64,000 bases of DNA from Thermoplasmata archaeon (GCA_034667745.1 JAXDQP010000062.1:958-64957); one strand, 5' to 3'; shown: positions 1,083 to 45,265, counted from the stretch's first letter. Program-made: numbers and translations. The notes: generated by a model from the sequence alone, not told the origin.

Positions 1083-1281
1083 GGAGGCCTGGGATTTCGG
1101 CGATTGAGGGGATTTGGGGAGCGTGGCGCCCACTCGCTCCACATGCAGGGATGGTTCGCCAAAGTTCAAGAGCAGGCCCGTTGGCCGCTGGGTGGCCCGC
1201 AGGTAGTGGGCGAGTTGGCTTTGACTGCGTGGTGGGTGAACGTTCCCCGAAATCTGGAAATCGCCGAAATCCCAGGCCTCC
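1083..1281. repeat. MITE-like palindromic element, type A (copy A1, ~199 bp), 23-bp terminal inverted repeats GGAGGCCTGGGATTTCGGCGATT / AATCGCCGAAATCCCAGGCCTCC
   Basis: Exact inverted repeats read at 1083-1105 and 1259-1281; related copies at 8625-8702 and 24059-24145; intergenic. Confidence 0.8.
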
Positions 1282-1285
1282 CACA

Positions 1286-1789
1286 CTAGCCAGAGAGGCC
1301 CAACTCCCACTCCTGCTCGTGCGCCCAGGGTGCCCACGGGCAGGGCTCCGGCGACTCTTCCACGAGCCGGAAGCCTGCGCGTTCGTACATCTTGCGCGCC
1401 TCCACCAAATCGCTGACGGTGTGCAGGTGGACGCCCTGGTAGCCGGCCTGCCGCGCGAAGGCCAGGGACGCGTCGAACAGCCTCCGGCCCAGGCCGGTGC
1501 CGCGTGCCCGCCTCTCGACGAGGAACCACCGGAGCTTGGCCCACCCGGGCCGGTCGGCGTCGTGGTGGATGGCGACGAAGCCCGTGATGCCCTCCGGGTC
1601 CTCGGCGACCCAGGTGCGGTCCTTGGCGGGGTCGAGGCCGTGCAGGAAGGGCGGGATGGTCTCGGCGACGTACTTGCCGAAGACGGGGCCGTAGCCGAAC
1701 TCCTCCGCATACACGGTGACCTTGCGGGTGCGCACCCACTCCATGTCGGCGGGGGTGCCGGGACGGATGCGCGCCTCGGCGGGTGTCAT
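1286..1789 (-). CDS. GNAT family N-acetyltransferase
   Basis: 167 aa; acetyl-CoA binding-like motif RRARGTGLGRRL, typical GNAT length and pattern. Confidence 0.75.
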   Translation of the reverse strand: MTPAEARIRPGTPADMEWVRTRKVTVYAEEFGYGPVFGKYVAETIPPFLHGLDPAKDRTWVAEDPEGITGFVAIHHDADRPGWAKLRWFLVERRARGTGLGRRLFDASLAFARQAGYQGVHLHTVSDLVEARKMYERAGFRLVEESPEPCPWAPWAHEQEWELGLSG

Positions 1790-1995
1790 GCCTGGACGCG
1801 GAGGGCCCGCTCCAGGCGGCGGCGCATCTTGTCGTGGCGGCGGACGGAGCCCTTGGCCTGCGCCAGCGCGCGGCTGCGCTCCTTCGAGTCGTGATGGGTG
1901 AGGAGCTTCTTCTGGTGCTCCTCCAGGCGGCGCAGCAGCTCCTGCTCCTCGGCCAGCAGTTGGCGCAGGTGCGCGTTCATCGCTTCGGGGTCCAT
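1786..1995 (-). CDS. small coiled-coil protein (DUF465/YdcH-like guess)
   Basis: Internal ATG at 1995 gives 69 aa MDPEAMNAHLRQLLAEEQELLRRLEEHQKK..; ATGA overlap with GNAT gene; longer ORF to 2118 possible. Confidence 0.4.
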   Translation of the reverse strand: MDPEAMNAHLRQLLAEEQELLRRLEEHQKKLLTHHDSKERSRALAQAKGSVRRHDKMRRRLERALRVQA

Positions 1996-2042
1996 GCCGG
2001 CGGCAAGGCCGCCTCGCTCATAACCAAGTCGGGGGCAAGGAT

Positions 2043-2446
2043 TCATCGCTTGCGCTGCGCGGCCATGCGCCCGGCCTTGAGACGCTGGTATGCGGGGTCG
2101 GCGCGCACCTTGTCCCACGCCGCCTTGAACGCCTCGGCGCTCGCCTGCTTCTGCGCGTCGGGGTCAAGCGGAAGCTCGCTCCCGTCCGCCGCCTTCTTGC
2201 GGCCGCTGCGGTGGCGCGCGTAGCGGCGGCTGCGGGTGTAGCCCATTTGTAGGAACTTGCGGCACATGTCCATCCCCGCGAAGTCCCCTTCCTTGCGATA
2301 GGCGCGGTAGCGGGCGAGGATTGCCTTGGCGCTGCGCTTGGCGATGGCTGGCGTGCGGAAGCGCCACAGTGGCAGGATGGCTTGCGTGTACGGGGGCGTG
2401 CTGAGGACGCCTTCCTCCCCGCGGCCGATGCGGTAGGCGCGCATCA
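2043..2446 (-). CDS. hypothetical basic protein (possibly DUF3253-like)
   Basis: 133 aa starting [12 protein letters not shown]; its ATG overlaps the hutU stop codon by 1 nt (TGATG), implying translational coupling; motif MCRKFLQMGYTRSRRYARHRSGRK. Confidence 0.5.
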
Positions 2447-4156
2447 CATCAGCGGCGTGCGGACCTTCTCCCTCTTCGCGACGGCCTTGGCCTTGGCGTA
2501 CCCCGCGTCGGCGTGGCGGACGATGCCCATGCCGGGGTCGGCGCGGAAGACGCGCTTGGCCTTCTCGCGCGCGAGCTTGGTGCCGTCGAGGACGACGACG
2601 ACGCCGGCGTGGGTGCTGTAGCCGATGCCGACGCCGCCGCCGTTGTGGATGTGGACCGAGTCCGCGCCCGCCGCGACGTTGAGCATGGCGTTGAGCAGCG
2701 GCCAGTCCGCGATGGCGTCGCTGCCGTCCAGCATGCCCTCGGTCTCGCGGTAGGGGCTCGCCACGCTGCCGCAGTCGAGGTGGTCGCGCGTCACGGCGAT
2801 GGGGCCAATCTCGCCCTTGCGCACGAGGTCGTTCATGGCGAGGGCGAAGCGGTCGCGCTCGCCCATGCCGAGCCAGCAGACGCGCGCCGCGAGGCCCTCC
2901 CACGGCAGGTGCTTCCCGGCGAGGTCGAGCCAGTTGTTGAGGGTGCGGTTCCTGGGGAACATCTCGCGCACGAGCTGCTCGGTGCGGCGGATGTCTTCGG
3001 GCCGGTTCTGCAGGCTGAGCCAGCGGAAGGGGCCGCGGCCCTCGCAGAACATGGGGCGGATGTAGGCTGGGACGAAGCCCGGGAAGCTGAACGCCGTGTC
3101 GCGGGCCAGGCCCCCGAGCCGCGCTCCCTCGCGGATGTTGTTGCCGTAGTCGAACACGTGGCTGCCGGCGCGGGCGAAGCCGACCATGGCCTCCACGTGG
3201 CGGGCCATCGACTCCTGCGCGAGCCTCGTGTGCTTGGCGGGGTCCTTCTGCCGCAGCGCAGCCGACGCCGCGACGGTGAGGCCGGCGGGGACGTAGCGCA
3301 GGGGGTCGTGCGCGCTCGTCTGGTCGGTCACGAGGTCCGGCTTGAACCCGGCCGCGAGCAGCGCGGGGAACGCCTCGGCCGCGTTGGCGAGGAGACCGAC
3401 CGAAAGGGGCTGCTTCGCGGCGGCGGCCTTCTCCACGAGGTCGAGCGCGAGGTCGAGGTCCTCCACGACCATGCCGAGGAAGCCGGACTCCAGGCGGCGC
3501 TGGGCGCGGGCCGGGTCCACCTCGACGCAGAGGGCGACGCCGCCGTTCATCGTGACGGCCAAGGGCTGCGCGCCCCCCATGCCGCCCAGCCCACCCGTCA
3601 GCACGGTGCGGCCGCGCAGGTCGGACTTGAAGTGGGTGCGCGCGGCGGCCGCGAACGTCTCGTAGGTCCCCTGGATGATGCCCTGCGTCCCGATGTAGCA
3701 CCAGGAGCCGGCCGTCATCTGGCCGTACATCGTGAGCCCCTCCGCCTCCAGCTTGTTGAACTCCGTCCAGTTGCTCCAGTGCGGCACGAGGTGGCTGTTG
3801 GCGATGAGGACGCGCGGCGCCTGCTCCCAGGTCGGGAAGATGGCGACCGGCTTGCCCGACTGGATGAGCAGCGTCTCGTCGTCGCCGAGCCCCGCGAGCG
3901 CCTTCTTGATGGCGGCGAGCGCCTTGGGGTTGCGCGCCGCCTTCCCGGTGCCGCCGTAGACGATGAGCTTGTCCGGCTCCTCCGCGTTGTGCAGGTTGTT
4001 CTCCAGCATCCGCAGGATGGCCTCGGTGCGCCACGACTTGCAGCGCAGCGGCGTGCGGGGGCCGGCCACGGCGGGGCGGGAGGTCGTCTTGGCGGGGCTC
4101 TTGGCGCCGGGCACGCGGTGGGGACCGGAGGCGGGCGCATAGCGGTTTCGTGCCAT
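2444..4156 (-). CDS. hutU: urocanate hydratase
   Basis: 570 aa; conserved urocanase blocks [10 protein letters not shown], DPx[15 protein letters not shown]; N-terminal start may be internal. Confidence 0.9.
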
Positions 4157-4278
4157 TCCCGGCGTCGCCCCCGAGCGCGCTGGGCCACTTGTCCGATTTG
4201 GGACACGCGTGCCCGGCGTTGTTCCCCCGTCGCCACCACCCCTATATTGTCAGCCACGCAGTTCGGGTCCCGTCGTTC

Positions 4279-5259
4279 ATGGTGGACGTTGCCGTTGTCG
4301 GCGCCCGGGGCTACCTGGGCCGGGAATTGATGCGCTGGCTGCTCCTGCACCCCGAGGTCACCTCGGTCGCGCCCATCACGAGCGGCGCGCCGGGCACGCC
4401 CTACGGCGACTCCGTGCCCGCGTTCCGGCACCGCACCGACCTCGTCATGGCGGGGCCCGCCGCCGCGCAGGACGCCGACGTCGTGTTCCTGGCCACCGAC
4501 GGCGAGGAGGCGCGCCACCACGCCGCCAGCCTCGCCGACGCCCCGCTCCTCGTCGACCTCAGCCGCGCCCACCGCGCCCAGGCCCTCGACGGCCGGGACG
4601 GCTGGACCTACGGCCTGAGCGAGTTCCTGCCGGTCCCCAAGGGCAGCCGCCGCATCGCCAACCCCGGCTGCTACCCCACCGCGACCCTGATTGCCGCCGG
4701 CCCCGCACTGAAGGCGGGCCTCTGCGAGCCCGGCCCTCTCATCAGCGACGGCAAGAGCGGCGTCTCCGGCGCCGGCGCCACGCCGCGCGGCGACCTGCAC
4801 TACCCCGAGGCCCACGACGCCGTGCGCGCCTACAAGGTCCTCGGCCACGACCACCTGGGCGAGATCCGCGGCGCCGCGGCCCGCATCGAGGGCAAGCCTC
4901 TCGCCGCTGCCCGCCCCGTCCGCTTCACGCCCCACCTCGTGCCCATGAACCGCGGCCTCCTCGCCACCGTCTACCTGCCGGTCAGCGCCTCCGCCGAGTC
5001 CGTCAAGGCGACCTACGCGCAGCACTACGCCGGCAACCCGTTCGTGCGCACCGTCGCCGAGCCCGACACGACCCACGTGCGCGGCAGCAACTACGCCGAC
5101 GTCGCCGTCGATGTGGACCCCGCCAGCGGCCTGCTGGTGGCGCGCTGCGCCATCGACAACCTCGTCAAGGGCGGCAGCGGCGCCGCCATCCAGAACATGA
5201 ACCTCGCCCTCGGCCTCGCGCCCACGCTCGGCCTCGACCGCGTCGCGGGAGGGCCCTGA
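4279..5259 (+). CDS. argC: N-acetyl-gamma-glutamyl-phosphate reductase
   Basis: Start MVDVAVVGARGYLGREL (NAD-binding GxxGxxG), catalytic GCYPT motif; upstream in-frame extension from 4150 judged spurious. Confidence 0.85.
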   Translation: MVDVAVVGARGYLGRELMRWLLLHPEVTSVAPITSGAPGTPYGDSVPAFRHRTDLVMAGPAAAQDADVVFLATDGEEARHHAASLADAPLLVDLSRAHRAQALDGRDGWTYGLSEFLPVPKGSRRIANPGCYPTATLIAAGPALKAGLCEPGPLISDGKSGVSGAGATPRGDLHYPEAHDAVRAYKVLGHDHLGEIRGAAARIEGKPLAAARPVRFTPHLVPMNRGLLATVYLPVSASAESVKATYAQHYAGNPFVRTVAEPDTTHVRGSNYADVAVDVDPASGLLVARCAIDNLVKGGSGAAIQNMNLALGLAPTLGLDRVAGGP

Positions 5260-5323
5260 TGCTGGCCAGCCGCAGCGAAGGTGCGGGTGCGCCCCGCTCG
5301 GGCAGCGCCGCAGGCGGTGCCTG

Positions 5324-6658
5324 ATGCTCCTCGGCTGGCGCCGCACGGTCGCCAAGCTTCAAGGCGACGAGCCGGCATCCCCGGCCCCGTCCGTGCCCCC
5401 GCAACGCGTCGAGGCGACCGCCGTGCCGCAGACCTACACGCTCACCGTCGTGCCCGACCGGCACCTCAACCACGTGCCCGGCTTCCGCGCCCAGGGCGTG
5501 TGGGCGCAGATCAAGAAGAAGAGCAAGGACGTCTGCCTCATCGTCAGCGACCGCCCCTCCAAGGGCGCCGCCGTCTTCACGCAGAACGCCTTCTGCGCCG
5601 CCCCCGTCACCGTCAGCCGTGAGCACGTCGAGAACGGCGACATCCGCGCCATCGTCTGCAACGCCGGCAACGCCAACGCCGTCACCGGCGAGCAGGGCCT
5701 GGCGGACGCCCGTGCGATGGCCGCCCACGCCGCCAAGGCGCTCAACCTGTCGCCCGACCAGATGATTGTGTGCAGCACCGGCATCATCGGCCGCCCGCTC
5801 CCGCTCGACAAGGTCACGAAGGGCATCGACGAGTGCGCCCGCACCCTCTACCAGGCGCAGGGCGGCGAGGCGGCCGAGGCCATCACCACGACCGACAGCC
5901 ACCCCAAGCACGTCTTCGTCGAGGTCAGCGTCGGCGGCCGCCACTTCCACATCGCCGGCATCGCCAAGGGCGCCGGCATGATTCACCCCAACATGGCCAC
6001 GATGCTGTCGTTCCTCGTGACCGACGCGCCGTTCAACGCCACGCTGCTGCAGGCGCAGCTCAAGCAGGCGGCCGACGCGACGTTCAACATGATCACCATC
6101 GACGGCGACCAGAGCACGAACGACACCTGCGCCATCATCGCCAACGGCGCCGCCGGCGGCCCGAACCTGCGCAAGGGCACCGTCGAGGCGGACGCGTTCC
6201 AGGCCGGCCTCCAGCTCGCCTGCAAGACGCTCGCCAAGCACATCGCCGGCGACGGCGAGGGCGCGACGGCCCTTCTCGAGGTGCGCGTCGAGGGCGCCAA
6301 CACCCTCCAGGACGCCCGCCTCATCGCGCGCAGCGTCGCCAAAAGCAGCCTCGTCAAGTCGGCGCTGCACGGCAAGGACCCCAACTGGGGCCGCATCGTG
6401 GCCGCCGTGGGCGCCTGCGGCGCGACCGTGGACCCCGGCAAGGTGAGCGTCCGCTTCGAGTCGAGCAAGGGCAGCGTCCCCGTCATGGACGACGGCGAGC
6501 CCCTGGGCGGCGCGAGCCTGAAGGAGGCCAACGCGGTCCTGCAGGACCACGAGGTCCGCATCCTCGTCCAGCTCGGCCTCGGCCAGCACAGCGCCGAGGC
6601 GTGGGGCTGCGACCTCTCCGAGGAGTACGTCACGTTCAACAGCGCGTACACGACGTGA
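5324..6658 (+). CDS. argJ: bifunctional glutamate N-acetyltransferase / amino-acid acetyltransferase
   Basis: 444 aa; ArgJ autoproteolysis site region ATMLSF (ATML motif), family length. Confidence 0.9.
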   Translation: MLLGWRRTVAKLQGDEPASPAPSVPPQRVEATAVPQTYTLTVVPDRHLNHVPGFRAQGVWAQIKKKSKDVCLIVSDRPSKGAAVFTQNAFCAAPVTVSREHVENGDIRAIVCNAGNANAVTGEQGLADARAMAAHAAKALNLSPDQMIVCSTGIIGRPLPLDKVTKGIDECARTLYQAQGGEAAEAITTTDSHPKHVFVEVSVGGRHFHIAGIAKGAGMIHPNMATMLSFLVTDAPFNATLLQAQLKQAADATFNMITIDGDQSTNDTCAIIANGAAGGPNLRKGTVEADAFQAGLQLACKTLAKHIAGDGEGATALLEVRVEGANTLQDARLIARSVAKSSLVKSALHGKDPNWGRIVAAVGACGATVDPGKVSVRFESSKGSVPVMDDGEPLGGASLKEANAVLQDHEVRILVQLGLGQHSAEAWGCDLSEEYVTFNSAYTT

Positions 6659-6662
6659 CCCC

Positions 6663-8623: not shown

Positions 8624-8624
8624 G

Positions 8625-8702
8625 GGAGGCCTGGGATTTCGGCGATTTGGGGAGGTGTGGGGGATTCCTAAAATCTGGGAATCGCTGGAATCCCAGGCCT
8701 CC
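8625..8702. repeat. MITE-like palindromic element, type A (copy A2, 78 bp)
   Basis: Left arm GGAGGCCTGGGATTTCGGCGATT 8625-8647; right arm AATCGCTGGAATCCCAGGCCTCC 8680-8702; between convergent argD and regulator gene ends. Confidence 0.8.
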
Positions 8703-8712
8703 CACACTCGCC

Positions 8713-9378: not shown

Positions 9379-9392
9379 CGGTCCGGGAGCGG

Positions 9393-13237: not shown

Positions 13238-13262
13238 TCCGGCGCGGCGGGGTGGAACGCGC

Positions 13263-13895: not shown

Positions 13896-14079
13896 CGATT
13901 CTTAGTGATTGATTGCTCAATTGCAGTATTTTACTAAATGAATGTATAGCTCATATAGTATTTAAGATTCAAATTGACGCATGGGAAATGCGCATTGCGA
14001 TAAATTGAAGCTAAATCCAGAACAAGCGAGAACAAATCGCGCAGAAGAAAAATCTAAGGAGTGAACCTGACGGTTTCTT
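13896..14079. promoter_or_regulatory. AT-rich (~30-35% GC by eye) non-coding patch with near-palindrome CAATCAAATCAC..GTGATTGATTG; left boundary of island and upstream region of recombinase gene
   Basis: Strong compositional contrast with the surrounding high-GC DNA; palindrome read directly. Confidence 0.5.
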
Positions 14080-14104
14080 GTGGAGATTCCAGGAGTGCAG
14101 TGCA

Positions 14105-14928
14105 TGGTCCGGGTTGCGCTCTACACCCGCGTCTCGACGGAGGACCAGGCGAAGGAGGGCTTCAGCCTGGACGCCCAGCTCGACCGCCTCCGCTTCTACT
14201 CAAAGGCGCAGGGATGGGACGTCGCGGGCGAGTACGTCGACGAGGGGCACAGCGGCCGCACGACGAAGCGCCCAATGTACCAGAAGATGATGGCCGAGCG
14301 CGCCGCGTGGGATGTCCTCTTGGTCCTCAAGATGGACCGCATCCACCGCAACAGCCGCAACTTCATGGCGATGATGGACGAGCTGCGCAAGGAGCAGAAG
14401 GAGTTCGCCAGCGTCACGGAGAGCCTGGACACCGGCACCGCGATGGGCCGCTTCGTCATGGACATCATCCAGCGCATCGCGCAGCTGGAGTCGGACCAGA
14501 TTGGGGAGCGCACCTACGTCGGGATGGAGCAGAAGGCCAAGACCCGCGCCGGCAACCTGGGCAAGCCCGCGCCGTTCGGCTACCGCTACACGCCGGAGGG
14601 CCCGTTTGCCATCGTTCCAGAGGAAGCTACGTTTGTCAGGATTATGTTCGATTCATACGCGAAAGGCGAAAAAAGAGGCGATATAGCGCAAAAGTTGGTC
14701 GAAATGGGGTCGAGGACCCGGTCCGGAAAGGAGTGGGACCGCTGGGCCGTCGCTGACATTCTGCTCAACCCCACCTATGCCGGCGCCACGCAGTGGGCGG
14801 ACCAGGTGCAGCTCGACACCCACCCCGCCATCATCCCGCCGGAGCAGTTTGACGCCGTGCAGGAACGCACGAAAATGGACAGTCCGAAGGCAAACGTGAC
14901 CTTCCTGACCCGGCTCACGGTCAACTGA
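14105..14928 (+). CDS. serine recombinase (resolvase/invertase catalytic domain plus partial 'recombinase' domain; short, ~274 aa)
   Basis: N-terminus MVRVALYTRVSTEDQ (catalytic Ser in the YxRVST motif), DRIHRN; C-terminal part resembles the recombinase domain of large serine recombinases but lacks zinc ribbon and coiled coil. Confidence 0.85.
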
Positions 14929-14956
14929 AGCGACTCGGCTTGGTTAGACCATTTTG

Positions 14957-14982
14957 GTGCCATACGGGCTCCCGTATGGCAC
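14957..14982. other. perfect 26-bp palindrome GTGCCATACGGG-CT-CCCGTATGGCAC (12-2-12), candidate serine-recombinase crossover site
   Basis: Read directly; 29 bp downstream of recombinase stop; geometry matches hix/gix/res-type sites with a central dinucleotide. Confidence 0.6.
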
Positions 14983-14994
14983 TCGGAGAGAACC
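14969..14994. repeat. direct repeat copy 1 CTCCCGTATGGCACTCGGAGAGAACC (pairs with 20745-20770)
   Basis: 26 bp, 25/26 identical to the second copy, same orientation; overlaps the right half of the palindrome. Confidence 0.8.
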
Positions 14995-15083
14995 AGGGGT
15001 CCTGCCGATTGCCATACGGGGTTCCGTGCCACGTGCGGCACGACGTCCGGTATATTTGACATATTCCGGCGGCCGCGCCGGAG

Positions 15084-15090
15084 ATATTTT
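15084..15090 (+). promoter_or_regulatory. TATA-box-like element (ATATTTT) about 25-30 nt upstream of small ORF 15115
   Basis: AT-rich heptamer in GC-rich context; a second TATATTT at 15051-15057. Confidence 0.3.
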
Positions 15091-15114
15091 CTCCAGCTCG
15101 GCCGTGCAGGGGGC

Positions 15115-15207
15115 ATGGACAAGCCGTTCGGCTGGAAGGCGTGGGTCGCGTTCGGGGCCTGCTCCGTGTTTGGGCTCGGCGCCCTCGCCTGGATCTTAGT
15201 GTCCTAG
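15115..15207 (+). CDS. putative 30-aa hydrophobic peptide MDKPFGWKAWVAFGACSVFGLGALAWILVS
   Basis: ATG..TAG ORF below the ORF-track size cutoff; single predicted TM helix; TATA-like box upstream. Confidence 0.3.
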   Translation: MDKPFGWKAWVAFGACSVFGLGALAWILVS

Positions 15208-15299
15208 GCAGTGGACCGCGACGGTGACGACCCCGAGGACGGCGGTCGACGCGAGGCCGAAGGCCCAGGACGCTAGGCGGGCGACGAGCCTCTGGTTCG

Positions 15300-16255
15300 T
15301 CATTCCCACTTCCTCCAGGGCTGGAGCCAGTCGCGGAAGGTGGCGAGGCCGTAGGGGTCGCGCTTCGTCTTCTCGACCTGCTCGGCGGACCACTCGCGGA
15401 CCGCGCGGTCGGGGGCGTCCCCGGCGCCGGGCGTGGCTGCGTTGACGAGCCAACGGGTGATGCCGGAAACGATGCCCGCAGACCCGGACGCGGCCTCGAC
15501 GCCCGTGACGATGGTGTGCCGGGCCGCGTAGTCGACGCCCCCGATGAACTCGTGCCCGACCGCGCTGCCGGTGTCGGCGCTGCCAGGCCAGATGATGGGC
15601 TCGAACGGGACCTTGACCCAGTCGCCCAGGTCAAGCTGCTTCTTCTCCGTCAGTCCGTCCCATCCTACGCCTGCGCCCCAGCCGGAGCTGGAGGATTTAT
15701 CGCCCTCGAGCGGGAGATATTCTTGCGAGCTGGGTGGGGGCGGGGCGACGTCGGCGTAGTGGGCGCCTGCGGGGTCGCGGCCGAGGTCGGCGGGTGGCGC
15801 GTCGAGGAAGTCCCAGTGTCCGTCCTTGGCGTCGTCGCGCAGGCGGAGGTTCAGGTCGAGGCGCGTCTGCGCTTCGGCTGCGGCCTGCTCGGGGTCGGCG
15901 TAGGTGCCGCGCACGTAGTTGGGGCCGCGGATGAAGTCGAGGATGCCGCGCGACTGCTCCACTTGAGCGTCAATCTGCGGGAGCCACTTGGACGCGTCCT
16001 CGCTGCTGCGAACGGAGTCGGCGAGGCGGCCCGCGTTCGGGGTCCACTTGAGCAAGTCGCTCCACGAGATGCGGGACGGCGCCGGAGCGGGCCCAGGAGC
16101 GGAGGCGGGCGTGGGCTCCGGCGCAGGAGTCTCTGGCGAGGGGGAGCTCCCAGGCGCAGGAGCGGGAGGGTGTTTCTTGCGCCACCAGAGCCACCCGCCC
16201 CAGCCCGCGAGGGCGGCCGCGCCGAGGGCGGCGGCTGCGACGTCGTCGCGCTGGG
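15300..16255 (-). CDS. island protein: N-terminal TM helix, Pro-rich linker, ~250-aa C-terminal domain of unknown function; no methionine anywhere in the 318 aa, start codon unresolved
   Basis: Long in-frame ORF immediately after the stop of the 16256-16750 gene; no ATG/GTG/TTG near its 5' end, first TTG is ~70 codons in; possible non-canonical start or -1 frameshift fusion with the upstream gene. Confidence 0.45.
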
Positions 16256-16750
16256 TCAGGTGAACTTCAACTCCCCGCTGACGGCGACGCCGTTGATGCC
16301 TGCGTCGGTGCTGACGACCTGGATGGTGATGCGGTCGCCGAGGGCGGCGACAGGTTCGTTCACGGTGTCGGCTTGCGCGTCGTTGGCAGCGGCCAGGGCG
16401 GGGTGCGTCACGGTGAGCGCGGACGCCACGCCGTTGATGAAGACCGTGACGACGACGGTCTCGCCTGCGCCCAGGGCGGTGCGCAGGACGCTGCGCAACT
16501 GGCGGATGCTGCCGGCGCGCGGCATGACGTAGCTGGATACGACGCTGACGGCGCCGAAGCCGCCGAGGCTGGCGTCCGTGTAGCCCTGCGGGTGGATGTA
16601 GCAGGTGGCGGCGGCCTGGAGCAGGGCGCCGCACCCGAAGGGCTTGCCGCGCTGCGAGTTGCCGAGCTTCGGCGCAGTGACGGCCTGGTCGTCTATCTCG
16701 GCGGTCTGGATGGTCTGGCCGACGCCAGCGCCGCGCCCGATGGTGGTCAC
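16256..16750 (-). CDS. island protein, 164 aa, beta-rich, unknown function
   Basis: ATG start; overlaps next gene by 4 nt (operon-like). Confidence 0.5.
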   Translation of the reverse strand: MTTIGRGAGVGQTIQTAEIDDQAVTAPKLGNSQRGKPFGCGALLQAAATCYIHPQGYTDASLGGFGAVSVVSSYVMPRAGSIRQLRSVLRTALGAGETVVVTVFINGVASALTVTHPALAAANDAQADTVNEPVAALGDRITIQVVSTDAGINGVAVSGELKFT

Positions 16751-17073
16751 TCGTAGGCCTCCAGTTCCTCAACATAGAGGTTGCCCGAGGCGGCATCCAA
16801 GTTGACCCAGAACTCGCCTTGGATGCTCTTGCCGTCGTGCTCGTAGTCCTTCACGATGCTGCCGCCGACGGCGTCGAGGCGGACGCCGCCAGTCAGGCTG
16901 CCGCCGGGGCGGCGGCGCAGGTGCGCGGCGTTGGCCTCGTTGTTGACCACGACGAGCGCGACCCGCAGGGGGTTGAAGGGGAGAAGGAGGGTGTCGACCG
17001 TGCCGACGGCCACGTTGCCCTCGGTCTTGATGCGCACGTTGCCCTTGGCGATGAGCGCGCGGACGTCGGGCAT
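16747..17073 (-). CDS. island protein, 108 aa, unknown function
   Basis: ATG start, 4-nt overlap with downstream gene. Confidence 0.5.
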   Translation of the reverse strand: MPDVRALIAKGNVRIKTEGNVAVGTVDTLLLPFNPLRVALVVVNNEANAAHLRRRPGGSLTGGVRLDAVGGSIVKDYEHDGKSIQGEFWVNLDAASGNLYVEELEAYE

Positions 17074-17076
17074 GGC

Positions 17077-17880
17077 TTACACCTTGGTGTTGACCGGGCG
17101 GACGTAGAGGTCCACGATTTGGACCTCATTGTCGGCGGCGTCGACCAGGAAGTCCGCCGTCGGCATGACCTGGGTGCTGAAGCGCCCGAGGACGCCCAGC
17201 TGGCCCGGCTCGAACATGGCGTGCGCGACGTCGGTGCGGGTGTCGTAGCACAGCACGCCGGGGCGGTGCGTCTGGCCCGCGAAGGCGAGGCGCATGGCGA
17301 TGCCGCTCGTGCTGATGGGGAACGCGGCCAGGACGTCGTAGACGCCCTCCAGCAGCGACTCGTCGGGGGTCAGCGCGCGGTTGTTCCAGTCGTTCGCGTT
17401 CATCGCGGCGGCGGCCGTGACGGTGCGAATCCAGAACCCGCCCTTGGGGTCCACGGCCTGCACGGGGCCGTCGCAGAACTGGGTCACGATGAACTGGTCC
17501 GTGGCGGCGGCCGGGTTGTTGACGGTCTCGTAGCCGACGAGCTCGCCGGGGCGCAGGCGGATGGGCTCGCGGCGGAAGTCGTTGACGACCGGCGGGGAGC
17601 CCGGCTCGACGGTGCTGGAGAGCTTGGGGACCTCGATGGCGCTGCGCTTGTAGGTGTCGCGCAGGCTGGGGGCGACGATGCGGCAGCGGGGCTGCACGGT
17701 GGCGTCGATGCCCGCGAACACGAACGCGACGCCGGGCAGTTCGCCGGGGACGCGGTAGAAGTCGCCGCTGCTGTCGCGCTGGAACAGCGGGGACAGGGTC
17801 TCCGCGATGGCGGCGAGCGGCTGGAGCGTGGCGGCGCCGTCCTGGTTCTCGAACCAGGCGACCATGTGCTGCCGCGTCAC
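17077..17880 (-). CDS. island protein, 267 aa, beta-rich (candidate structural/capsid-like protein; speculative)
   Basis: GTG start overlapping stop of upstream 50-aa gene (GTGA); no recognisable motif. Confidence 0.5.
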   Translation of the reverse strand: MTRQHMVAWFENQDGAATLQPLAAIAETLSPLFQRDSSGDFYRVPGELPGVAFVFAGIDATVQPRCRIVAPSLRDTYKRSAIEVPKLSSTVEPGSPPVVNDFRREPIRLRPGELVGYETVNNPAAATDQFIVTQFCDGPVQAVDPKGGFWIRTVTAAAAMNANDWNNRALTPDESLLEGVYDVLAAFPISTSGIAMRLAFAGQTHRPGVLCYDTRTDVAHAMFEPGQLGVLGRFSTQVMPTADFLVDAADNEVQIVDLYVRPVNTKV

Positions 17881-18029
17881 GCGAGCACCTCCAGGGCGGC
17901 GACCACTTCAGCGGGCGCGAGGGGCTGGAGGCGGGTCAGGCCGGGGCGCTTGACGGTGCCGTCCGCGTTGTAGACGAAGCCGGTCTCGGGGTCCCAGGCC
18001 TCGCGGTCCTTGTTGAGGATGACGGGCAT
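17877..18029 (-). CDS. small island protein, 50 aa (MPVILNKDREAWDPETGFVYNADGTVKRPGL...)
   Basis: ATG..TGA ORF found by manual translation, tightly packed between neighbours (3-nt gap upstream, GTGA overlap downstream). Confidence 0.45.
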   Translation of the reverse strand: MPVILNKDREAWDPETGFVYNADGTVKRPGLTRLQPLAPAEVVAALEVLA

Positions 18030-18032
18030 GGT

Positions 18033-18329
18033 TCACCAGATTTTGCGGCCGAACACCTTCGGCGAGCGGATTTTCAGGGCGCTGGCGATGCGCTTCTGGA
18101 GGCCGCGCCCCATCACGGGGATGGCCATCTGGGCGATGTTCCGGGCGGACACGGCCTCCTTGAGGGCGGGCTTGGCGGCGTTCATGGCGCCCTGCATGTC
18201 GCCGTTCATCGCCGCCTGGACGGCAGGGGTGAACGGCTCGACGGCCTGGACGACGATGTTCGTGGCGACGGCGAGGTCGCTCCAGGACTGCTTCGGCTTG
18301 CGGGGCTTGCTGTTCTTGGGCTTGGTCAT
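18033..18329 (-). CDS. small basic island protein, 98 aa (Lys/Arg-rich N-terminus, possible nucleic-acid binding)
   Basis: MTKPKNSKPRKPKQSW..; ATG start. Confidence 0.5.
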   Translation of the reverse strand: MTKPKNSKPRKPKQSWSDLAVATNIVVQAVEPFTPAVQAAMNGDMQGAMNAAKPALKEAVSARNIAQMAIPVMGRGLQKRIASALKIRSPKVFGRKIW

Positions 18330-18351
18330 GTCAGTGGTCTCCTTGGGTGTC

Positions 18352-18457
18352 TTACTTGCCCCACGTGGGGCGGGGGGCGAGGCGGCGCTTGCACTTGTTG
18401 TAGGCGCTCTTCTTGCGGTGCAGCCCGTGGCAGTACGGGCACTTCTTCAGTTGGGCC
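18352..18457 (-). CDS. 35-aa zinc-ribbon peptide MAQLKKCPYCHGLHRKKSAYNKCKRRLAPRPTWGK
   Basis: CPxC...C spacing typical of a zinc ribbon; ORF below track cutoff, found manually. Confidence 0.4.
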
Positions 18458-18460
18458 ATG

Positions 18461-18913
18461 TCAGGCGGGTCTCCAGGTGTTTTCCTTCGTTGCGTCGTTC
18501 ATGTGGGGGACAGTGCGGAGGAACGGTTCGAGGATGGGCTTCCAGCGGGCGCCGGACTCGTAGACGCCTTGCATGGTGTCCGGGCCGAGGAAGGCCTCGA
18601 TGCGCGCCACGTTGTCCGGGCCGAAGCGCTGCGCGATGAGCGTCTTGACCTCGACCTTCGTGGCGAGGGCGGTCAGGCGCTTCTCTTCGGCCTTCTGCCA
18701 GCGCAGGGCGGCGGCGTCCGTGGGGTCCACGCCGCCGCGCATGACGCCGGGCTTCAGCAGCGCATCCAGCCGAGCGCCTAGACGCGTCTCGGCGGCTGCA
18801 ATGTCGCGGTTGACGCGGGGGATGGTGTGCAACGTGGCGATGCAGGTGTCGGTGACGCACTGGGCGAACAGGCCGATGATGAAGGCGCCGATGGTCAGCA
18901 AAACCTGGTCCAT
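18461..18913 (-). CDS. island protein, 150 aa, N-terminal hydrophobic segment (membrane-associated)
   Basis: MDQVLLTIGAFIIGLFAQCV.. hydrophobic N-terminus. Confidence 0.45.
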   Translation of the reverse strand: MDQVLLTIGAFIIGLFAQCVTDTCIATLHTIPRVNRDIAAAETRLGARLDALLKPGVMRGGVDPTDAAALRWQKAEEKRLTALATKVEVKTLIAQRFGPDNVARIEAFLGPDTMQGVYESGARWKPILEPFLRTVPHMNDATKENTWRPA

Positions 18914-19339
18914 GTTTCACAGCAAGGATTGAACAGCATTTAGCTAGCGAGGTTTTCGGCTAAACGAGCGAATACATGTGGCGAGCTTGCGCTAAACAGC
19001 GTCCCAAATGCGTTCCGTGCGTTGACCTTAAGGGGAAACGCCAGCGTTGGGGGGTTTGGGGGGCGTAGGATGGAGCACAGGATTACCTGGGCGCACAGGC
19101 GCACAAGGCGACCGGACAAGGCGGCATCCTCAGCGGCCGGACAAGGGGGAGGTATGGAGGGGGAGCACCCCTTACGGCACGGTGCTCGCTTCGCTCGCGC
19201 CCCGTCATCTTGGGCGCGCTGCTGCGCGCACCCCCGACCGAGAGGAATCCCCCGGACCCCAGCCCGGAATCGACGGCAAGGCCCCTAGGCGCGCGTCCCT
19301 TGGCTCAGAAAAGGGAAGAAGGGGGAAGAGGCGACCGGG

Positions 19340-19549
19340 CTAGGATTCGAGCCAGCGCGCGCCCTGCGGAAGGGGCTCGTTGGCGGGCCACCACCCGGCG
19401 CGGCCGTCCACGCCCGCGGCGTAGCGCACGTGGGTGTGGCTGCCGTCAGGCCAGCTGACGCGCATGGTGCGCGCCCGAGGCGTAGGGCGGGCCGGTCGGA
19501 AGTCTCGGCGGGCGAGTTGGCAGCGGCAGCTAGTCGTCTTCTTGGCCAT
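19340..19549 (-). CDS. possible small Cys-containing protein, 69 aa
   Basis: ATG ORF MAKKTTSCRCQLARRD..; weak support. Confidence 0.25.
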   Translation of the reverse strand: MAKKTTSCRCQLARRDFRPARPTPRARTMRVSWPDGSHTHVRYAAGVDGRAGWWPANEPLPQGARWLES

Positions 19550-19775
19550 CGGGGGCCTCCACTCCAGACCTAGCCGAGCTGGCGGATTTATTCCGTGCCG
19601 ACGTCGCCTTGCCCAGCTGGAGCTCCGCGAGGCGGCCCAGGCGCGAGCTCACCGAGTGATAGCTCCAGGGGCGGTCCTTGAACGCGGGGTGCTTGTAGGC
19701 GTCGAGCTTGCGGATGCGCTCGGCCAGGCTGACCGGGATGCTGATGGTGGTGCGAGGCTCCTTGCTCACCGTCAC
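19530..19775 (-). CDS. ribbon-helix-helix (CopG/Arc-like) DNA-binding protein, ~80 aa
   Basis: GTG start overlapping upstream stop (GTGA); beta-strand TTISIPVSL followed by helices LAERIRKL..; the longer 117-aa ORF is probably an over-extension. Confidence 0.45.
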   Translation of the reverse strand: MTVSKEPRTTISIPVSLAERIRKLDAYKHPAFKDRPWSYHSVSSRLGRLAELQLGKATSARNKSASSARSGVEAPDGQEDD

Positions 19776-19903
19776 ACCACCGTGGGCGCGCGGGGACAGG
19801 TGGCGTGGTAGCAGGCGCTGCACACCACGGGCTTGCTGTCGGGGTCGAGCCAGCCCGGGTGTCCGCCCCGGCAGCCAGGGCACGAGTCGCAGAAGCCGCT
19901 CAC
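19772..19903 (-). CDS. small zinc-finger protein (~43 aa: VSGFCDSCPGC...CSACYHATCP)
   Basis: Two CxxC pairs; GTG start overlapping upstream stop (GTGA). Confidence 0.4.
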   Translation of the reverse strand: MSGFCDSCPGCRGGHPGWLDPDSKPVVCSACYHATCPRAPTVV

Positions 19904-20079
19904 GCGATAGCCCCCCGGCCGATGGCGTCGAGGATGCCGGGCTTGTCGAGGAGCTTCTCGACGCGGTCGAGGAGCCGGACGCAACTGGTGAGGGTTCCTC
20001 GACACTCGACCTCGACCTGTCCGATGCGGACGGAGATGCTGTTCCCGTAGTCCGGGCGGAGCCGGGCGGCGCGGCCCAT
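19900..20079 (-). CDS. small island protein, 59 aa
   Basis: ATG at 20079 immediately after upstream stop (TGACGATG); manual translation MGRAARLRPDYGNSISVRIGQVEVECRG.. Confidence 0.4.
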   Translation of the reverse strand: MGRAARLRPDYGNSISVRIGQVEVECRGTLTSCVRLLDRVEKLLDKPGILDAIGRGAIA

Positions 20080-20081
20080 CG

Positions 20082-20249
20082 TCAGGCCCCCGGCTTGCGC
20101 CAGCTGTTGCCGCCGTGCTGGCGGCAGTCGTTGTAGCTCAGGAGCTCGTAGGTCTCCGAGTTGCGCGACCAGGTGCAGCCGCAGGGCGCGGTGACCTGCT
20201 CCTCCTTGGCGGCCTTGGGGTGGAACGCCTTGCGCAGCAGGCCCTTCAC
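20082..20249 (-). CDS. small Cys-containing island protein, 55 aa
   Basis: GTG start overlapping stop of 20246 gene (GTGA); VKGLLRKAFHPKAAKEEQVTAPCGCTW.. Confidence 0.35.
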   Translation of the reverse strand: MKGLLRKAFHPKAAKEEQVTAPCGCTWSRNSETYELLSYNDCRQHGGNSWRKPGA

Positions 20250-20719
20250 TGCGACGCCCCCGGCACAGGGAGGTCCGAGTCCGAGTCCGTCAGGGGTCGT
20301 GCGACGCTCACGACTGTGAGGTGGAACGTCTTCTTCAGGCCCCGGCCTTCGCTGTGGATATCCAGGACGACGTTGCCGCTCCAGTCGGGGCCGCTGCGCA
20401 CGATGACGTCACGCAGGGAGACGGCCGCCGGGAGGCTCAGGATTTCCCAGACGCTCTCACGGGCGGTGCCTACTTCCAGGAAGGTCGCCACCGCGTACTT
20501 GGTGACGGCCTTCGAGCTCACGATGTTCCCGTTGTCGTCGTGGTTGGCGATGGTGTGCGGGATGCCCTGGGGGCCGTAGCCCTTCACGTCCACCAGGACG
20601 ACGCGCTGGGGCGTGCTCTCCGGCTGGAAGAACGTGGGCTTCGCCTTGTCGGGGAGGTTCAGGCCCGCGAGCCACGCGCCACGGTCAAGGGTCTTCTGTT
20701 CAGGGGTCGTCTCTTGCAT
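20246..20719 (-). CDS. island protein, ~157 aa (ATG at 20719; alternative GTG at 20758 lies inside the direct repeat)
   Basis: MQETTPEQKTLDRGAWLAGLNLP..; unknown function. Confidence 0.5.
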   Translation of the reverse strand: MQETTPEQKTLDRGAWLAGLNLPDKAKPTFFQPESTPQRVVLVDVKGYGPQGIPHTIANHDDNGNIVSSKAVTKYAVATFLEVGTARESVWEILSLPAAVSLRDVIVRSGPDWSGNVVLDIHSEGRGLKKTFHLTVVSVARPLTDSDSDLPVPGASQ

Positions 20720-20744
20720 ACGGTTCGCTCCAAATTGGCTCGAA

Positions 20745-20770
20745 CTCCCGTATGGCACTCGAAGAGAACC
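20745..20770. repeat. direct repeat copy 2 CTCCCGTATGGCACTCGAAGAGAACC
   Basis: 25/26 identity with 14969-14994, same orientation; the sequence to its left does not match the left palindrome half. Confidence 0.8.
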
Positions 20771-20792
20771 GCATTTTTCCCGTAGATTTTGC

Positions 20793-21176
20793 TCATTTTT
20801 GTGCAGAACTGGCCAAAATCATCAGGATGTCCGCTTCCAACTGGCTCAGCAGCCGGGTGAGGAACAGGTAGACCAAGGTGAGGAGGCCGGTGAGCGCGCC
20901 GGCCACGCGAACGGCGGCGGTGACGACCGGGGTTGCCTGTGAGAGTCCGGGGACGAAGTTGGCCGCCAGGCCGACGACGGTGCCGGCGAAGCCCAGGTAG
21001 AGCAGCACGAGGGCGCCGGTGCGGACGCGGTCCCAGCGGCGCAGGCTTGCGGCGCGCTCGTGCAGGAGGCTGTCGCGGCCGCGGCTGCCCAGCTCGAGGG
21101 CCTGCAGGATGTGCCCATAGCGGCTGTGCAATAGCCACTGGAGGCGGGACTCGTAGGGGTACACGCGGCCGGCAAG
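20793..21176 (-). CDS. small membrane protein (two predicted TM helices); start uncertain (TTG/GTG)
   Basis: C-terminal part GALVLLYLGFAGTVVGLAANFV..VVTAAVRVAGALTGLLTLVYLFL hydrophobic; no internal ATG. Confidence 0.4.
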   Translation of the reverse strand, partial: LAGRVYPYESRLQWLLHSRYGHILQALELGSRGRDSLLHERAASLRRWDRVRTGALVLLYLGFAGTVVGLAANFVPGLSQATPVVTAAVRVAGALTGLLTLVYLFLTRLLSQLEADILMILASSAQK

Positions 21177-21399
21177 GGGGGCGCGGAGATGGGGTTGCCG
21201 CTCCGTTGCGTCGGGAGCAAAAGGGGGAGAAGGGGGAAGATTGGGGTGGTCACGCCAGGCGTTCGGTGTATTCCCATTCGCTGGTGACCACACGGATCCA
21301 GACGTAGCTGTCCATGCGATGCCTCCCATTTCCTTGGGGCGCCGACGGCCTCCCAGCCGTGCGACAGAGTCGCGGGGCGTCCCGAGGGAAACCGGACTA

Positions 21400-21596
21400 T
21401 GCGTTGCGTGATTTAAGGCGTTCCAAGCGAAGCGACGGTGCCGATGCAACACCACCCAGAAATGTTCCCGTGCAGTTATAAGATTTATAAATAAATGGGA
21501 GCAACTTTGCATCAAAGCATTTGATTCGCGCAAAAGCGCAACGACACGACTGATTCTCAATCAGCGAAATTCAATCTGAATCCGCAAATCTGTTCA
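21400..21596. promoter_or_regulatory. AT-rich patch with TTTATTTATAAATC TATA-like box on the minus strand; right boundary of island
   Basis: Composition contrast; TATA-like sequence read directly. Confidence 0.45.
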
Positions 21597-21863
21597 TCAG
21601 TCGAGCAGCGTGAACAGGACGTCATCCTGCCCCACGTCGAACACGCCCAGCCGCGCGCCCGCGTCGAGCCAGCCGTGCGCGTAGTTGACCTGCGCGAACG
21701 CGTTCACGAAGTCGCCCTGGGCGTGGAAGTGCTGCGCGTCGGCGTAGTAGCGCTTGGCCATGTCGAGGAAGTTGTCGGCGATCTTGGCCGCGAAGGACTT
21801 CGGCGGCGCCACGACCTTGACCTTCTCGAAGGCGCGCCGCGTGGTGTCGAGGTACTTCCCCAT
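21597..21863 (-). CDS. small conserved archaeal protein, 88 aa (DUF357-like guess)
   Basis: MGKYLDTTRRAFEKVKVV..YYADAQHFHAQGDFVNAFAQVNYAHGWLDAGARLG; 29-nt gap after the HerA-like gene, same strand. Confidence 0.5.
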   Translation of the reverse strand: MGKYLDTTRRAFEKVKVVAPPKSFAAKIADNFLDMAKRYYADAQHFHAQGDFVNAFAQVNYAHGWLDAGARLGVFDVGQDDVLFTLLD

Positions 21864-21892
21864 CTTCTCCGCGGAAATCTCCCTCTGCGGGG

Positions 21893-23992
21893 TCAACGCC
21901 ACAGCCGGCGCAAGGTGGAGCGGGTCTTTTGCCGTTCCTGCTGCAGCAGGCGGTGGTAGGTGCAGCCCGCCTGCTCGGGGCAGCGGATGCAGGCCGGTCC
22001 CTCCGGCAGGCAGGCGTTCTCCGCGATCTCCAGCAGCAGCCGCAGGCGGGCGTCGGGGTCGCGGTGGTGTGACGCCTCGAGGTCGCCGACGATGGCGACG
22101 GTGCGCGCGGGGTCCTGGTCTGGCCCCACGAGGCCGATGCGGGAGGCGACGCGGTGGATGTCCTTGGCGTCCCCGGCGGTCCAGCTCTTGCGGACCTTGT
22201 GGGCGAGGAACGCGTCGTCCGGGATGAGGCGGCGCGGGGAGCGGGGCAGCGTCTGGAACTCGACCTCGGGCGCCTGGACCGGGAGGACCGGCTTGGGGCG
22301 CGCGGGCGGCGCGATGGCCGGGGCAGCGGGCGAGGCAGCGGGAGCCGGTGGGACGGGCGCAGGCGGGGGTTGGAACGCGCTGGGCGGCGTCCACACCGGC
22401 GCCACGGGCTTCGGCGGGTCAACACTCGGGGCCGGGTTCAGGGGCGCGCGGGGCGCAGGGGGCGGCAGAACGGGCGCCTGGGGCGCTTCGCCATCGTCCT
22501 CCTCTTCGTCCTCGTCCGACTCCTGGTGCAGCACGGACACGGAGCGGCCGCCGTGGCGCGTCAGGCGGGGGCGCACCGACACGAAGACCGGCTGCGTGAG
22601 GCCGCCACCCGCCACGAGGGCCTCCCCCACGGCGAGGCGCTGGATTTCATCGGCGACCTCCGCCGAGATGCCCTCGACGCTCTGGACGATGGCCTTGAGG
22701 TCATTCGGGTTCGTGACCTTCAGCACGACCTGGGTGTTGCACTGCGACAGCACGTTCTTGTCGATCTTCGCCGGGCGCTGGCTCACGATGACGAGGCCCA
22801 TGCCGAATTTGCGGCCCTCCGAGGCCACGGTGCGGATGATGGCTCCGCTCACGGCGTTGCCCACGTTCCTTTCCGGGCAGAAGTTGTGCGCCTCCTCCAC
22901 CACGAGGATGTGCGCGGGAATCTCGCCGCGCTTGCGCGCCTCCCAGAGCATGTTCGCGATTCGCGTGACGACGATCTCCTGGATGTCGGGGTTGACACCC
23001 TTGAGGTTCACGATGGTGCACTGGCCCGGCGCGACCAGCTCCTTGACGGGGGTGCCGCGGATGTCGAAGACCTTCGTGGACTCCAGGACCTCGAGGGCGT
23101 TGAGGACGTTCCACTTGGCGTTCGATTTGTTGCGCGCGACGCCGTCCATGATGTCGCGCAGCGTGTAGGCGGGGAGATGCTCCTTGATCTCCTTGATGGC
23201 CTGGTAGAGCACGCCCACCTGGCCGCCGGAGAGCTTGCCGCCCAGCAGGTCCACGATGTCGCGGCCCTCCAGGTTCATGCCCTCCAGCACCAGGCGCTGC
23301 GCTTCGGGGTTGAGCTGGACGTCGAGGGCGTACTCCTTGACCTGCTTGGCGAACGACTTGGGCTTCACCTTGTAGCGCGCCATCGCCTCCAGCTCGCCCT
23401 CGTCGAGGTTGGGGCTCCGCAGGGAGCCGTACTCGCCGTGCGGGTCGAGGATGACCAGCGGCACGTTGGCCTTGATGAGCTCCTCCAGGATGACCGCGAC
23501 GGTGTAGGATTTGCCGGCGCCGGTCTTCGCCAGCACCGAGAGGTGCTTCTGCGCCACCGTGTCCATGGAGAGCGCGACGGGAATCTTGCTGCCCTTGACG
23601 AAGCCGAGGTAGGCGCCGCCCTCCGCCGACTGCTCCAGCCCCAGCACGGTCGTGACGAGGCGGTCGTCGGCGTTGTAGACCGGCACCCCGGCGCGGAACG
23701 GCGTGCGCGGCGTCTGGATGCGGCCCTGCTGGTCCTGGTAGCCGATGACGCGCACGCCGGCCGAGAGCTGGTCCTCGGCATCGGCGGCCAGCCCCTCGGG
23801 AATCGCGACGGCCTGCTCGTAGCTCAGGCTGCTGCGCCGCAGGACGGCGTCGACCTGCGCCAGGACGCGGTGGCCCTCGGACTCCACCTCGACGTAGTCC
23901 AGGCGCTTGAGCCCGGAGTCCCCCACGGCGATGTCGAACGCGGTGCTCGACACGTTGCCGTAGATGATGCCGACCTGGCGGCGCAGGGCCAT
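21893..23992 (-). CDS. HerA-like (DUF87/FtsK-HerA superfamily) ATPase with N-terminal HAS-barrel-like region, Pro-rich linker and C-terminal Cys-cluster domain
   Basis: Walker A LAKTGAGKS, Walker B HILVVEEAH; acidic patch DEDEEEDDGE then ~80 aa Pro-rich; C-terminus ..ACLPEGPACIRCPEQAGC.. Confidence 0.8.
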   Translation of the reverse strand: MALRRQVGIIYGNVSSTAFDIAVGDSGLKRLDYVEVESEGHRVLAQVDAVLRRSSLSYEQAVAIPEGLAADAEDQLSAGVRVIGYQDQQGRIQTPRTPFRAGVPVYNADDRLVTTVLGLEQSAEGGAYLGFVKGSKIPVALSMDTVAQKHLSVLAKTGAGKSYTVAVILEELIKANVPLVILDPHGEYGSLRSPNLDEGELEAMARYKVKPKSFAKQVKEYALDVQLNPEAQRLVLEGMNLEGRDIVDLLGGKLSGGQVGVLYQAIKEIKEHLPAYTLRDIMDGVARNKSNAKWNVLNALEVLESTKVFDIRGTPVKELVAPGQCTIVNLKGVNPDIQEIVVTRIANMLWEARKRGEIPAHILVVEEAHNFCPERNVGNAVSGAIIRTVASEGRKFGMGLVIVSQRPAKIDKNVLSQCNTQVVLKVTNPNDLKAIVQSVEGISAEVADEIQRLAVGEALVAGGGLTQPVFVSVRPRLTRHGGRSVSVLHQESDEDEEEDDGEAPQAPVLPPPAPRAPLNPAPSVDPPKPVAPVWTPPSAFQPPPAPVPPAPAASPAAPAIAPPARPKPVLPVQAPEVEFQTLPRSPRRLIPDDAFLAHKVRKSWTAGDAKDIHRVASRIGLVGPDQDPARTVAIVGDLEASHHRDPDARLRLLLEIAENACLPEGPACIRCPEQAGCTYHRLLQQERQKTRSTLRRLWR

Positions 23993-24058
23993 CAGGAGAC
24001 CACTCCTGGAGGTCCTATATCAGGCCGCCCAAATGGACCTAGGAGGGCCGCCGGGAAC

Positions 24059-24145
24059 GGAGGCCTGGGATTCCAGCGATTTCAGAGTTTAGGAAACCTG
24101 GGCCAAGTCTTCGCAATCCCAAATCACCGCAACCCTCCGGCCTCC
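24059..24145. repeat. MITE-like palindromic element, type A (copy A3, degenerate right arm)
   Basis: Left arm GGAGGCCTGGGATTCCAGCGATT is the exact reverse complement of the A2 right arm; right arm only partially conserved (..CCGGCCTCC). Confidence 0.6.
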
Positions 24146-36300: not shown

Positions 36301-36350
36301 GGTTCTGCATCAAATGCACTCAGACCTTAAGCTTACGCTGGCGGATTTTG

Positions 36351-38950: not shown

Positions 38951-38965
38951 GTTCCGGGGCTTCCA

Positions 38966-45255: not shown

Positions 45256-45265
45256 CCGAACTGAA

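Follow-up and report, generated by a model that had tools for sequence, protein, structure and literature searches.

What are the short palindromic elements that recur, with the same inverted arms, between unrelated genes of an uncultured archaeon? The question is raised by a stretch of 64,000 nucleotides from a Thermoplasmata archaeon (GCA_034667745.1, JAXDQP010000062.1:958–64957; the whole stretch is hereafter called the window), in which three copies of an element termed type A lie between positions 1083 and 24145. These elements are probably small, non-coding, foldback-type repeats that are now mobile or were so recently, and the best reading is that they form a new family, belonging to an equally new group of non-autonomous mobile repeats of soil Thermoplasmatota, resembling foldback elements and repetitive extragenic palindromes (REPs). 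Judging from its sequence, the host is an uncultured soil archaeon of Candidatus Thermoplasmatota. The G+C content of the window is 69.7% (about 70% for the genome), the genes around the elements are of archaeal type (MCM, NMD3, Hef, HerA, XPD, and DUF424), and the nearest homologs of MCM and argD carry the names Candidatus Thermoplasmatota or Thermoplasmata archaeon, while a search of species-representative genomes with argD returned matches of at most 48% identity only. Gene calls are those of the Joint Genome Institute (JGI) for the metagenome contig that encloses the window (3300044739 / Ga0467042_0000140, 88,032 bp).

The type A arm, GGAGGCCTGGGATTYCRGCGATT (23 nt), occurs five times in the window, with 0 occurrences expected by chance. 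When up to three mismatches are allowed, the 23-mer GGAGGCCTGGGATTTCGGCGATT is found at 1083–1105(+), 1259–1281(−), 8625–8647(+), 8680–8702(−), and 24059–24081(+); the 14-mer core of the arm recovers the identical five sites, and the arm search of dinucleotide shuffles gives 0 matches. The first copy, c1 (1083–1281, 199 nt, + strand), is the long form, with perfect 23-nt terminal arms at 1083–1105 and 1259–1281. Its extended arms reach 42 nt at 81% complementarity and enclose a unique 115-nt centre, and the 153 nt between the 23-nt arms (1106–1258) have no other match in any locus compared. The second copy, c2 (8625–8702, 78 nt, + strand), lies between the convergent argD and ACT-domain genes and appears to have been derived from the c1 form by a deletion; its right arm carries two transitions that are G·U-compatible on the + strand, and its arms match at 21 of 23 positions. 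The third copy, c3 (24059–24145, 87 nt, − strand), is inverted relative to the other two, as the alignment co-orients c1(+), c2(+), and c3(−). A profile of the type A arm ranks six type A arms first, including the decayed far arm of c3 (E = 0.0036), followed by the arms of a second family, type B, and then by noise. The left arm of c3 and the right arm of c2 have the variant GGAGGCCTGGGATTCCAGCGATT in common, and the two arm types differ in their continuation, one running on into GATTTGGGGAG and the other into GATTYCCAGATTT. The sequence-only reading of this stretch had reported three intergenic copies of these lengths with 23-bp inverted arms, the third of them decayed and sharing its left arm with the right-arm variant of the second, and every one of these points was borne out. 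It missed the inversion of c3, two more elements in the window, and the group of elements built from 9-nt units to which all of them belong.

Each type A element starts with the GC-rich clamp GGAGGCC. Two or three 9-nt units come next, in each of which an 8-nt motif (CTGGGATT, CGGCGATT) is conserved; the centre, 15–153 nt long, varies, and after it the arm recurs in inverted form. In c1 and c2, the intact copies, an unpaired AGTGTG tag is also present at one end, a feature that c3 lacks. On the + strand the tag appears as the 6-mer CACACT just outside one arm, at 1282–1287 in c1 and at 8703–8708 in c2, and likewise in the c2 ortholog of a near-identical strain from another JGI sample (L100, argD 98% identical to that of the window), which places AGTGTG directly 5′ of the hairpin foot on the other strand. 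The copies, at 78–199 nt, carry no called gene, and their six-frame translations, searched against a protein database for spurious reading frames running across other copies, gave 0 matches.

Strong hairpins are predicted for every type A copy, whether folded as RNA or as DNA (z of about −6 for c1 and c2). The predicted fold of c1 reaches −122 kcal/mol (z = −6.6), that of c2 as RNA is −58.6 kcal/mol on the + strand vs. −45.3 kcal/mol on the − strand, and the c3 hairpin shows no excess over shuffled sequences. Within the 23-bp stem the changes among copies are one-sided or pair-breaking, and none is compensatory across the four type A sequences (covariation term 0), a check that the sequence-only reading had proposed. 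Across 11 elements of four families, 12 of the 13 arm-to-arm mismatches fall at position 9 of the unit, transversions included (binomial P = 5e-12). The retention of the 8-nt motif while pairing of the ninth base is free fits recognition of the motif at both ends better than it fits selection for a perfect RNA stem.

All three copies are intergenic. The c1 copy lies 4 nt past the stop of a GNAT gene (1286–1789, minus strand) and 74 nt before the start (1008) of the next minus-strand gene, c2 follows the argD stop (8623) by 1 nt and precedes the stop (8713) of the convergent ACT-domain gene by 10 nt, and c3 lies 26 nt past the stop of the UPF0147 gene (24172), with 66 nt separating it from the HerA start (23992) on its other side. 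At the GNAT gene, the TAG stop codon (1286–1288) shares bases with the c1 tag, AGTGTG, the minus strand reading C-TAG-TGTG-GGAGGCC, and the insertion of c1 may thus have supplied or replaced this stop codon. The c2 element was assembled independently in the L100 sample, and a Logan short-read contig with the GNAT gene (L002) terminates 16 nt inside the arm of c1, where a repeat or a strong palindrome would be expected to cause a break. These two observations indicate that the elements are not an artefact of one assembly.

A short-range inverted-repeat scan of the window revealed two type B elements. B1 (30138–30242, 105 nt), which begins 9 nt past the MCM stop codon, has perfect arms of 25 nt, ACAGGGATTTCGGGGATTCCGGGGA, and B2 (45263–45352, 90 nt), situated between cmk and cbf5/truB, has equally perfect arms of 28 nt. 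The type B arms, ACAGGGATTYCGGGGATTYCGGGGA, have the core GGGATTYCGGSGATT in common with type A (13 matches vs. 0.4 expected), and the type A arm profile scores them at E = 0.07–0.14 (about 0.13 for the B1 arms), with noise setting in above E = 7. A further type B copy, with a B2-type left arm and a B1-type right arm, was found in another JGI soil-type sample (L094) through a palindromic pattern for types A and B applied to metagenomes. On the continuation of the window's own contig (L091), a type C element with units CACGAATT stands at 13955–14014, about 1.1 kb past the right end of the window. The sister species Ga0467070 (JGI 3300044834, argD 90%) carries seven elements of the CACGAATT and CACAGATT types within 39 kb at two loci (L101 and L104), one of them nested in another, and a relative with 82% MCM identity (L098) carries one CACGGATT element. 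The arms of the whole group consist of tandem 9-nt units of the form C-W-S-R-R-A-T-T-N, two to three per arm. When 1.46 Mb of control loci were scanned with a generic detector of such mirrored units, none turned up. The same plan in L094, L091, L101, L104, and L098, with none in the controls, supports an architecture common to the group, within which type A is a sister of types B, C, and D, which have other 8-nt motifs. The tag extends beyond type A as well. Both CACAGATT-type (D-type) elements of L104 start with AGTGT followed by GGGCRAAC and end in GCCC followed by TTGCC, and four of the six occurrences of the 8-mers AGTGTGGG and CCCACACT in about 180 kb are at element ends.

Most copies of the group begin 1–30 nt past a stop codon. 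The type C copy of L091, which separates the MetRS and DUF488 genes at their divergent starts, is the only one not beside a gene 3′ end. Degenerate or rearranged half-elements, with CACAGATT-type arms lacking a proper partner, were seen in L104 (10330–10470), in L107 (the same species as L104), and in L102 (11553–11600), a relative used for comparison at the argD/ACT-domain site, where a GGTTCGG...CCGAACC mini-hairpin abuts the solo arm beside the stop of the ACT gene. Such half-elements may be decay products or footprints.

The distribution of the elements differs between relatives. B1 is absent between MCM and DUF424 in the closest relative, GCA_035526765.1 (L095, MCM 96% identical), where the flanks align and the spacer measures 65 nt vs. 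190 nt in the window. The c3 copy is absent from L109, the relative used at the UPF0147–HerA site, in which UPF0147 is 100% identical as protein and 93% as DNA. The promoter region of HerA can be aligned there too, and the window is longer by 118 nt. The c2 copy is absent from L102, which has an unrelated 409-nt spacer instead; L100 retains it at the orthologous site, with a single substitution in an arm and the loss of 1 nt from the loop. The c2-bearing spacer is 95.6% identical between the window and L100 and the third codon positions of argD are 94.2% identical, which suggests that c2 is neutral, changes at about the synonymous rate, and has been inherited vertically since its insertion. 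In total, six elements of the group were counted in 72.7 kb here, seven in 39 kb in Ga0467070, and no intact one in 40 kb in GCA_035526765.1 (Poisson probability of zero, 0.037 or 0.0008 by the rate assumed). The 3′ end of the ACT-domain gene hosts a different family in each of three species, namely type A in the window, type C in L101, and half a D arm in L102. Exactly at the place of c3, between UPF0147 and HerA, several relatives (L104, L106, L107, and L108) have a vapBC-like pair (MazE-type antitoxin and PIN); by sequence comparison, this spacer seems to accept insertions repeatedly.

The identical arms at three unrelated loci, with none expected by chance, support dispersal, and the lack of c3, c2, and B1 in relatives supports gain and loss, so the proposal of the sequence-only reading that these copies belong to a small non-autonomous mobile or REP-like family has gained support. 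A trans-acting enzyme encoded elsewhere in the genome may recognise the 8-nt motifs that recur in the two arms, and probably also the tag, and would move or copy the element without leaving a visible target-site duplication. Copies would persist only where they are harmless, just past stop codons and before the next promoter. A transcribed element would form a very stable hairpin in the 3′ untranslated region (UTR) or the operon spacer, which is likely a side effect and not the element's reason. Several observations weigh against mobility. The known type A copies are the three in the window and one ortholog, and the exact arm has 0 matches in 185,579 species-representative genomes and 0 in the JGI metagenome collection (in which the source sample is evidently not included) and IMG/VR; a genome-wide multiplicity of type A is thus an extrapolation from the window. 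Target-site duplications, which had been proposed as a check, flank none of the 17 elements, and the comparison of filled and empty sites for B1 and c3 shows no duplication at junctions that have diverged, the spacers at empty sites being too diverged to fix the exact junctions. No transposase is present among the genes on the 88-kb contig, none with matching ends was found, and no Y1 transposase is among the called genes of the loci examined. Absence at orthologous sites could reflect deletion rather than insertion.

The hairpins themselves invite another explanation, according to which the elements are kept for an RNA role, as 3′-UTR or intercistronic structures that end transcription or shield mRNA from 3′–5′ decay, a role that has been suggested for REPs of bacteria and for Correia elements. 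The stability of the hairpins (z from −4.5 to −11) and the start of most copies 1–30 nt past a stop codon agree with this, as do the arm differences of c2 and c3, which are G·U-compatible on the sense strand of the upstream gene. However, compensatory changes are lacking, unit position 9 mismatches freely, with transversions among the mismatches, and the c2 ortholog of L100 has an A·C mismatch on the sense strand. Moreover, no U-tract follows any hairpin, c1 is inverted with respect to transcription when compared with c2 and c3, one type C copy is flanked by divergent gene starts, relatives do without elements at orthologous sites, and c2 changes at the synonymous rate. A role in RNA is consequently unlikely, and the suggestion of the sequence-only reading that the copies act as a stable functional hairpin RNA, terminator, or insulator found no support. 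Like intrinsic terminators (hairpin and U-tract) or archaeal oligo-T terminators, type A places a stable GC-rich stem near a stop codon, but it has no T-run after the stem. At c3 a T5 run follows the UPF0147 stop codon and precedes the element, and identification as an intrinsic terminator was rejected because no T-run directly follows any element.

The constraint on the 8-nt motif could also be explained if the elements were arrays of binding sites for a host DNA-binding protein with a nucleoid, insulator, or regulatory function, the mirrored, 9-bp-spaced, GATT-containing 8-nt motifs being the functional part and their spread secondary. The conservation of the motif beside a free ninth base and a free centre would be accounted for in this way, as would the variation from two to three units per arm and the species-specific motif variants, which are expected from a co-evolving binding protein. 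A transposase that recognises the ends predicts the same motif conservation, however, and no candidate protein was found, 3′ ends and operon spacers are not regulatory hot spots, and the elements are missing at orthologous sites of close relatives. Binding-site arrays are accordingly a quite improbable explanation. That there is no family at all, only a duplicated intergenic segment or a chance palindrome, could be argued from the fact that there are three type A copies only, all within 24 kb, but this reading is refuted, since the three copies have unrelated flanks, chance would give 0 matches, and related elements exist in other species and samples. Among these explanations, a family of small foldback-type mobile repeats is preferred.

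Among known systems, prokaryotic MITEs (miniature transposable elements with inverted repeats), such as Sulfolobus SM1–SM4, Neisseria Correia/NEMIS, ERIC, and RUP, are likewise small, non-coding, intergenic, and dispersed, with terminal inverted repeats, hairpins, and a presence that varies between relatives, and they too occur in long and short forms, as do c1 and c2. Type A falls under the size criterion of MITEs (under about 600 bp, with no coding capacity) and has terminal inverted repeats and dispersed copies with presence/absence polymorphism. It differs from MITEs in that there is no target-site duplication, no parent insertion sequence (IS) with the same ends was found, and the arms are tandem 9-nt units and not a single inverted repeat. 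Archaeal MITEs have been reviewed for Sulfolobus, Halobacterium, Haloquadratum, and Desulfurococcus and for unnamed other genomes, with no example from Thermoplasmatota (PMC10969869). A full-text literature search for MITEs of Thermoplasmatota returned none. The commonest IS family of archaea is IS200/IS605 (PMC13343696).

REPs and REPINs, palindromes tagged with GTAG or CGTC and linked to tyrosine HUH transposases (RAYT or TIRYT), are likewise intergenic hairpins found mostly downstream of genes (PMC3733652; PMC3116915). As here, several families occur per genome, species-specific stems are combined with one common unpaired end tag (AGTGT(G) in the present elements), target-site duplications are lacking, and abundance is uneven among close relatives. 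An unpaired conserved tag across families with different stems is the logic of the GTAG- and CGTC-tagged REPs (PMC3733652), and the unpaired AGTGT(G) tag common to type A and the D-type elements recalls it by analogy. However, the tag is neither GTAG nor CGTC, and a REP is an imperfect palindrome of 20–40 nt, whereas the arms here are tandem 9-nt units that are not self-complementary. A cognate single-copy RAYT/TnpA(REP) gene with the repeats on either side typifies REP/RAYT systems, as do tens to hundreds of copies in a genome; no RAYT or TIRYT gene was seen in the loci examined here, and from the six elements of the group in 72.7 kb and the seven in 39 kb of the sister species a genome-wide number would be an extrapolation. 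REP/RAYT systems have been described from bacteria only (PMC3733652; PMC3116915). It is conceivable, though rather doubtful, that the elements are the archaeal equivalent of the bacterial REP/REPIN–RAYT (or TIRYT) systems. The tagged hairpins would then be processed as single-stranded DNA by a domesticated HUH enzyme or another hairpin-binding enzyme, and species-specific families would have arisen in a clade of soil Thermoplasmatota as the stem code diversified. If this were true, the novelty would lie in the AGTGT tag and in a stem code that is modular, with 8-nt motifs set on a 9-nt repeat.

Eukaryotic Foldback (FB) transposons have long inverted termini made of short tandem sub-repeats and a variable centre. 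Type A resembles them in architecture; they belong to another domain of life and another size scale, and the likeness is an analogy of architecture only, not evidence of homology. Several further identities were rejected. The elements are not a CRISPR remnant, there being no repeat-spacer array, and not a C/D-box small RNA, as the C and D boxes are lacking. They are not palindrome-associated transposable elements of the IS200/IS605 type, which would have separate subterminal hairpins at each end, nor Tn3-derived inverted-repeat miniature elements, since the GGGG...TAAG inverted repeat and the 5-bp duplication are absent. Rfam recognised only three tRNAs in the window, returned nothing for c1 at E ≤ 1 and only generic miRNA-hairpin matches far below threshold for c2, and gave nothing for L094, L100, or the phage contigs L112 and L113 described below. 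A literature search for the unit strings gave no match, and BLAST searches of phage and plasmid collections with c1 and with the phage hairpins gave none either. The statement of the sequence-only reading that no known family could be assigned therefore still holds.

Two IMG/VR contigs, L112 and L113, contain intergenic hairpins (4535–4615 and 4046–4103, respectively) whose arms consist of three CACGAAT units on the plan of type C. These are tailed-phage contigs of 54–57% GC with tape-measure/baseplate and HK97-capsid genes. Their likeness to the archaeal elements could be homology or convergence; the CACGAAT-unit hairpins hint that the architecture crosses domains, with convergence being possible. 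In viral contigs, neither the palindromic pattern for types A and B nor the D-type pattern had a match, and a 9-mer tandem pattern detected coding Ser-Gly-Asp repeats only, which are irrelevant here.

In addition, the window contains two islands. A 5.8-kb insert with small unannotated open reading frames (ORFs) lies within 14104–20770, adjoins a serine recombinase gene (14104–14928), and is bracketed by the 26-nt direct repeat CTCCCGTATGGCACTCGRAGAGAACC at 14969–14994 and 20745–20770; relatives have the same recombinase with different cargo or none, which suggests that the insert is an integrated plasmid or provirus. The second is a 5.6-kb island of lower GC content (61–65%; 35876–41279) between tRNA-Gln (35628–35700) and tRNA-Val (41315–41388), which encodes a helix-turn-helix protein and ORFs without a Pfam match and for which no flanking direct repeat was found. 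GCA_035526765.1 lacks this island, and 362 nt separate the genes that flank it, pyrB and the M50-protease gene. An identity of the type A elements with att sites of the two integrated islands was rejected, as the sequences differ.

Dispersed palindromic repeats are well studied in bacteria as REPs, REPINs, and MITEs and sparsely in archaea, to which the present elements add a new repeat group. They are an archaeal counterpart of those bacterial repeats and not a new kind of biology, while the wider palindromic group with arms of 9-base units is undescribed and apparently mobile. Taken together, the 9-nt units, the free ninth base, and the common unpaired tag suggest what a putative trans-acting enzyme reads. 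The elements break short-read assemblies and mark strain-level differences, and they put very stable hairpins into the 3′ UTRs and operon spacers of core genes of these archaea, including the arg operon, MCM, and cmk–cbf5.

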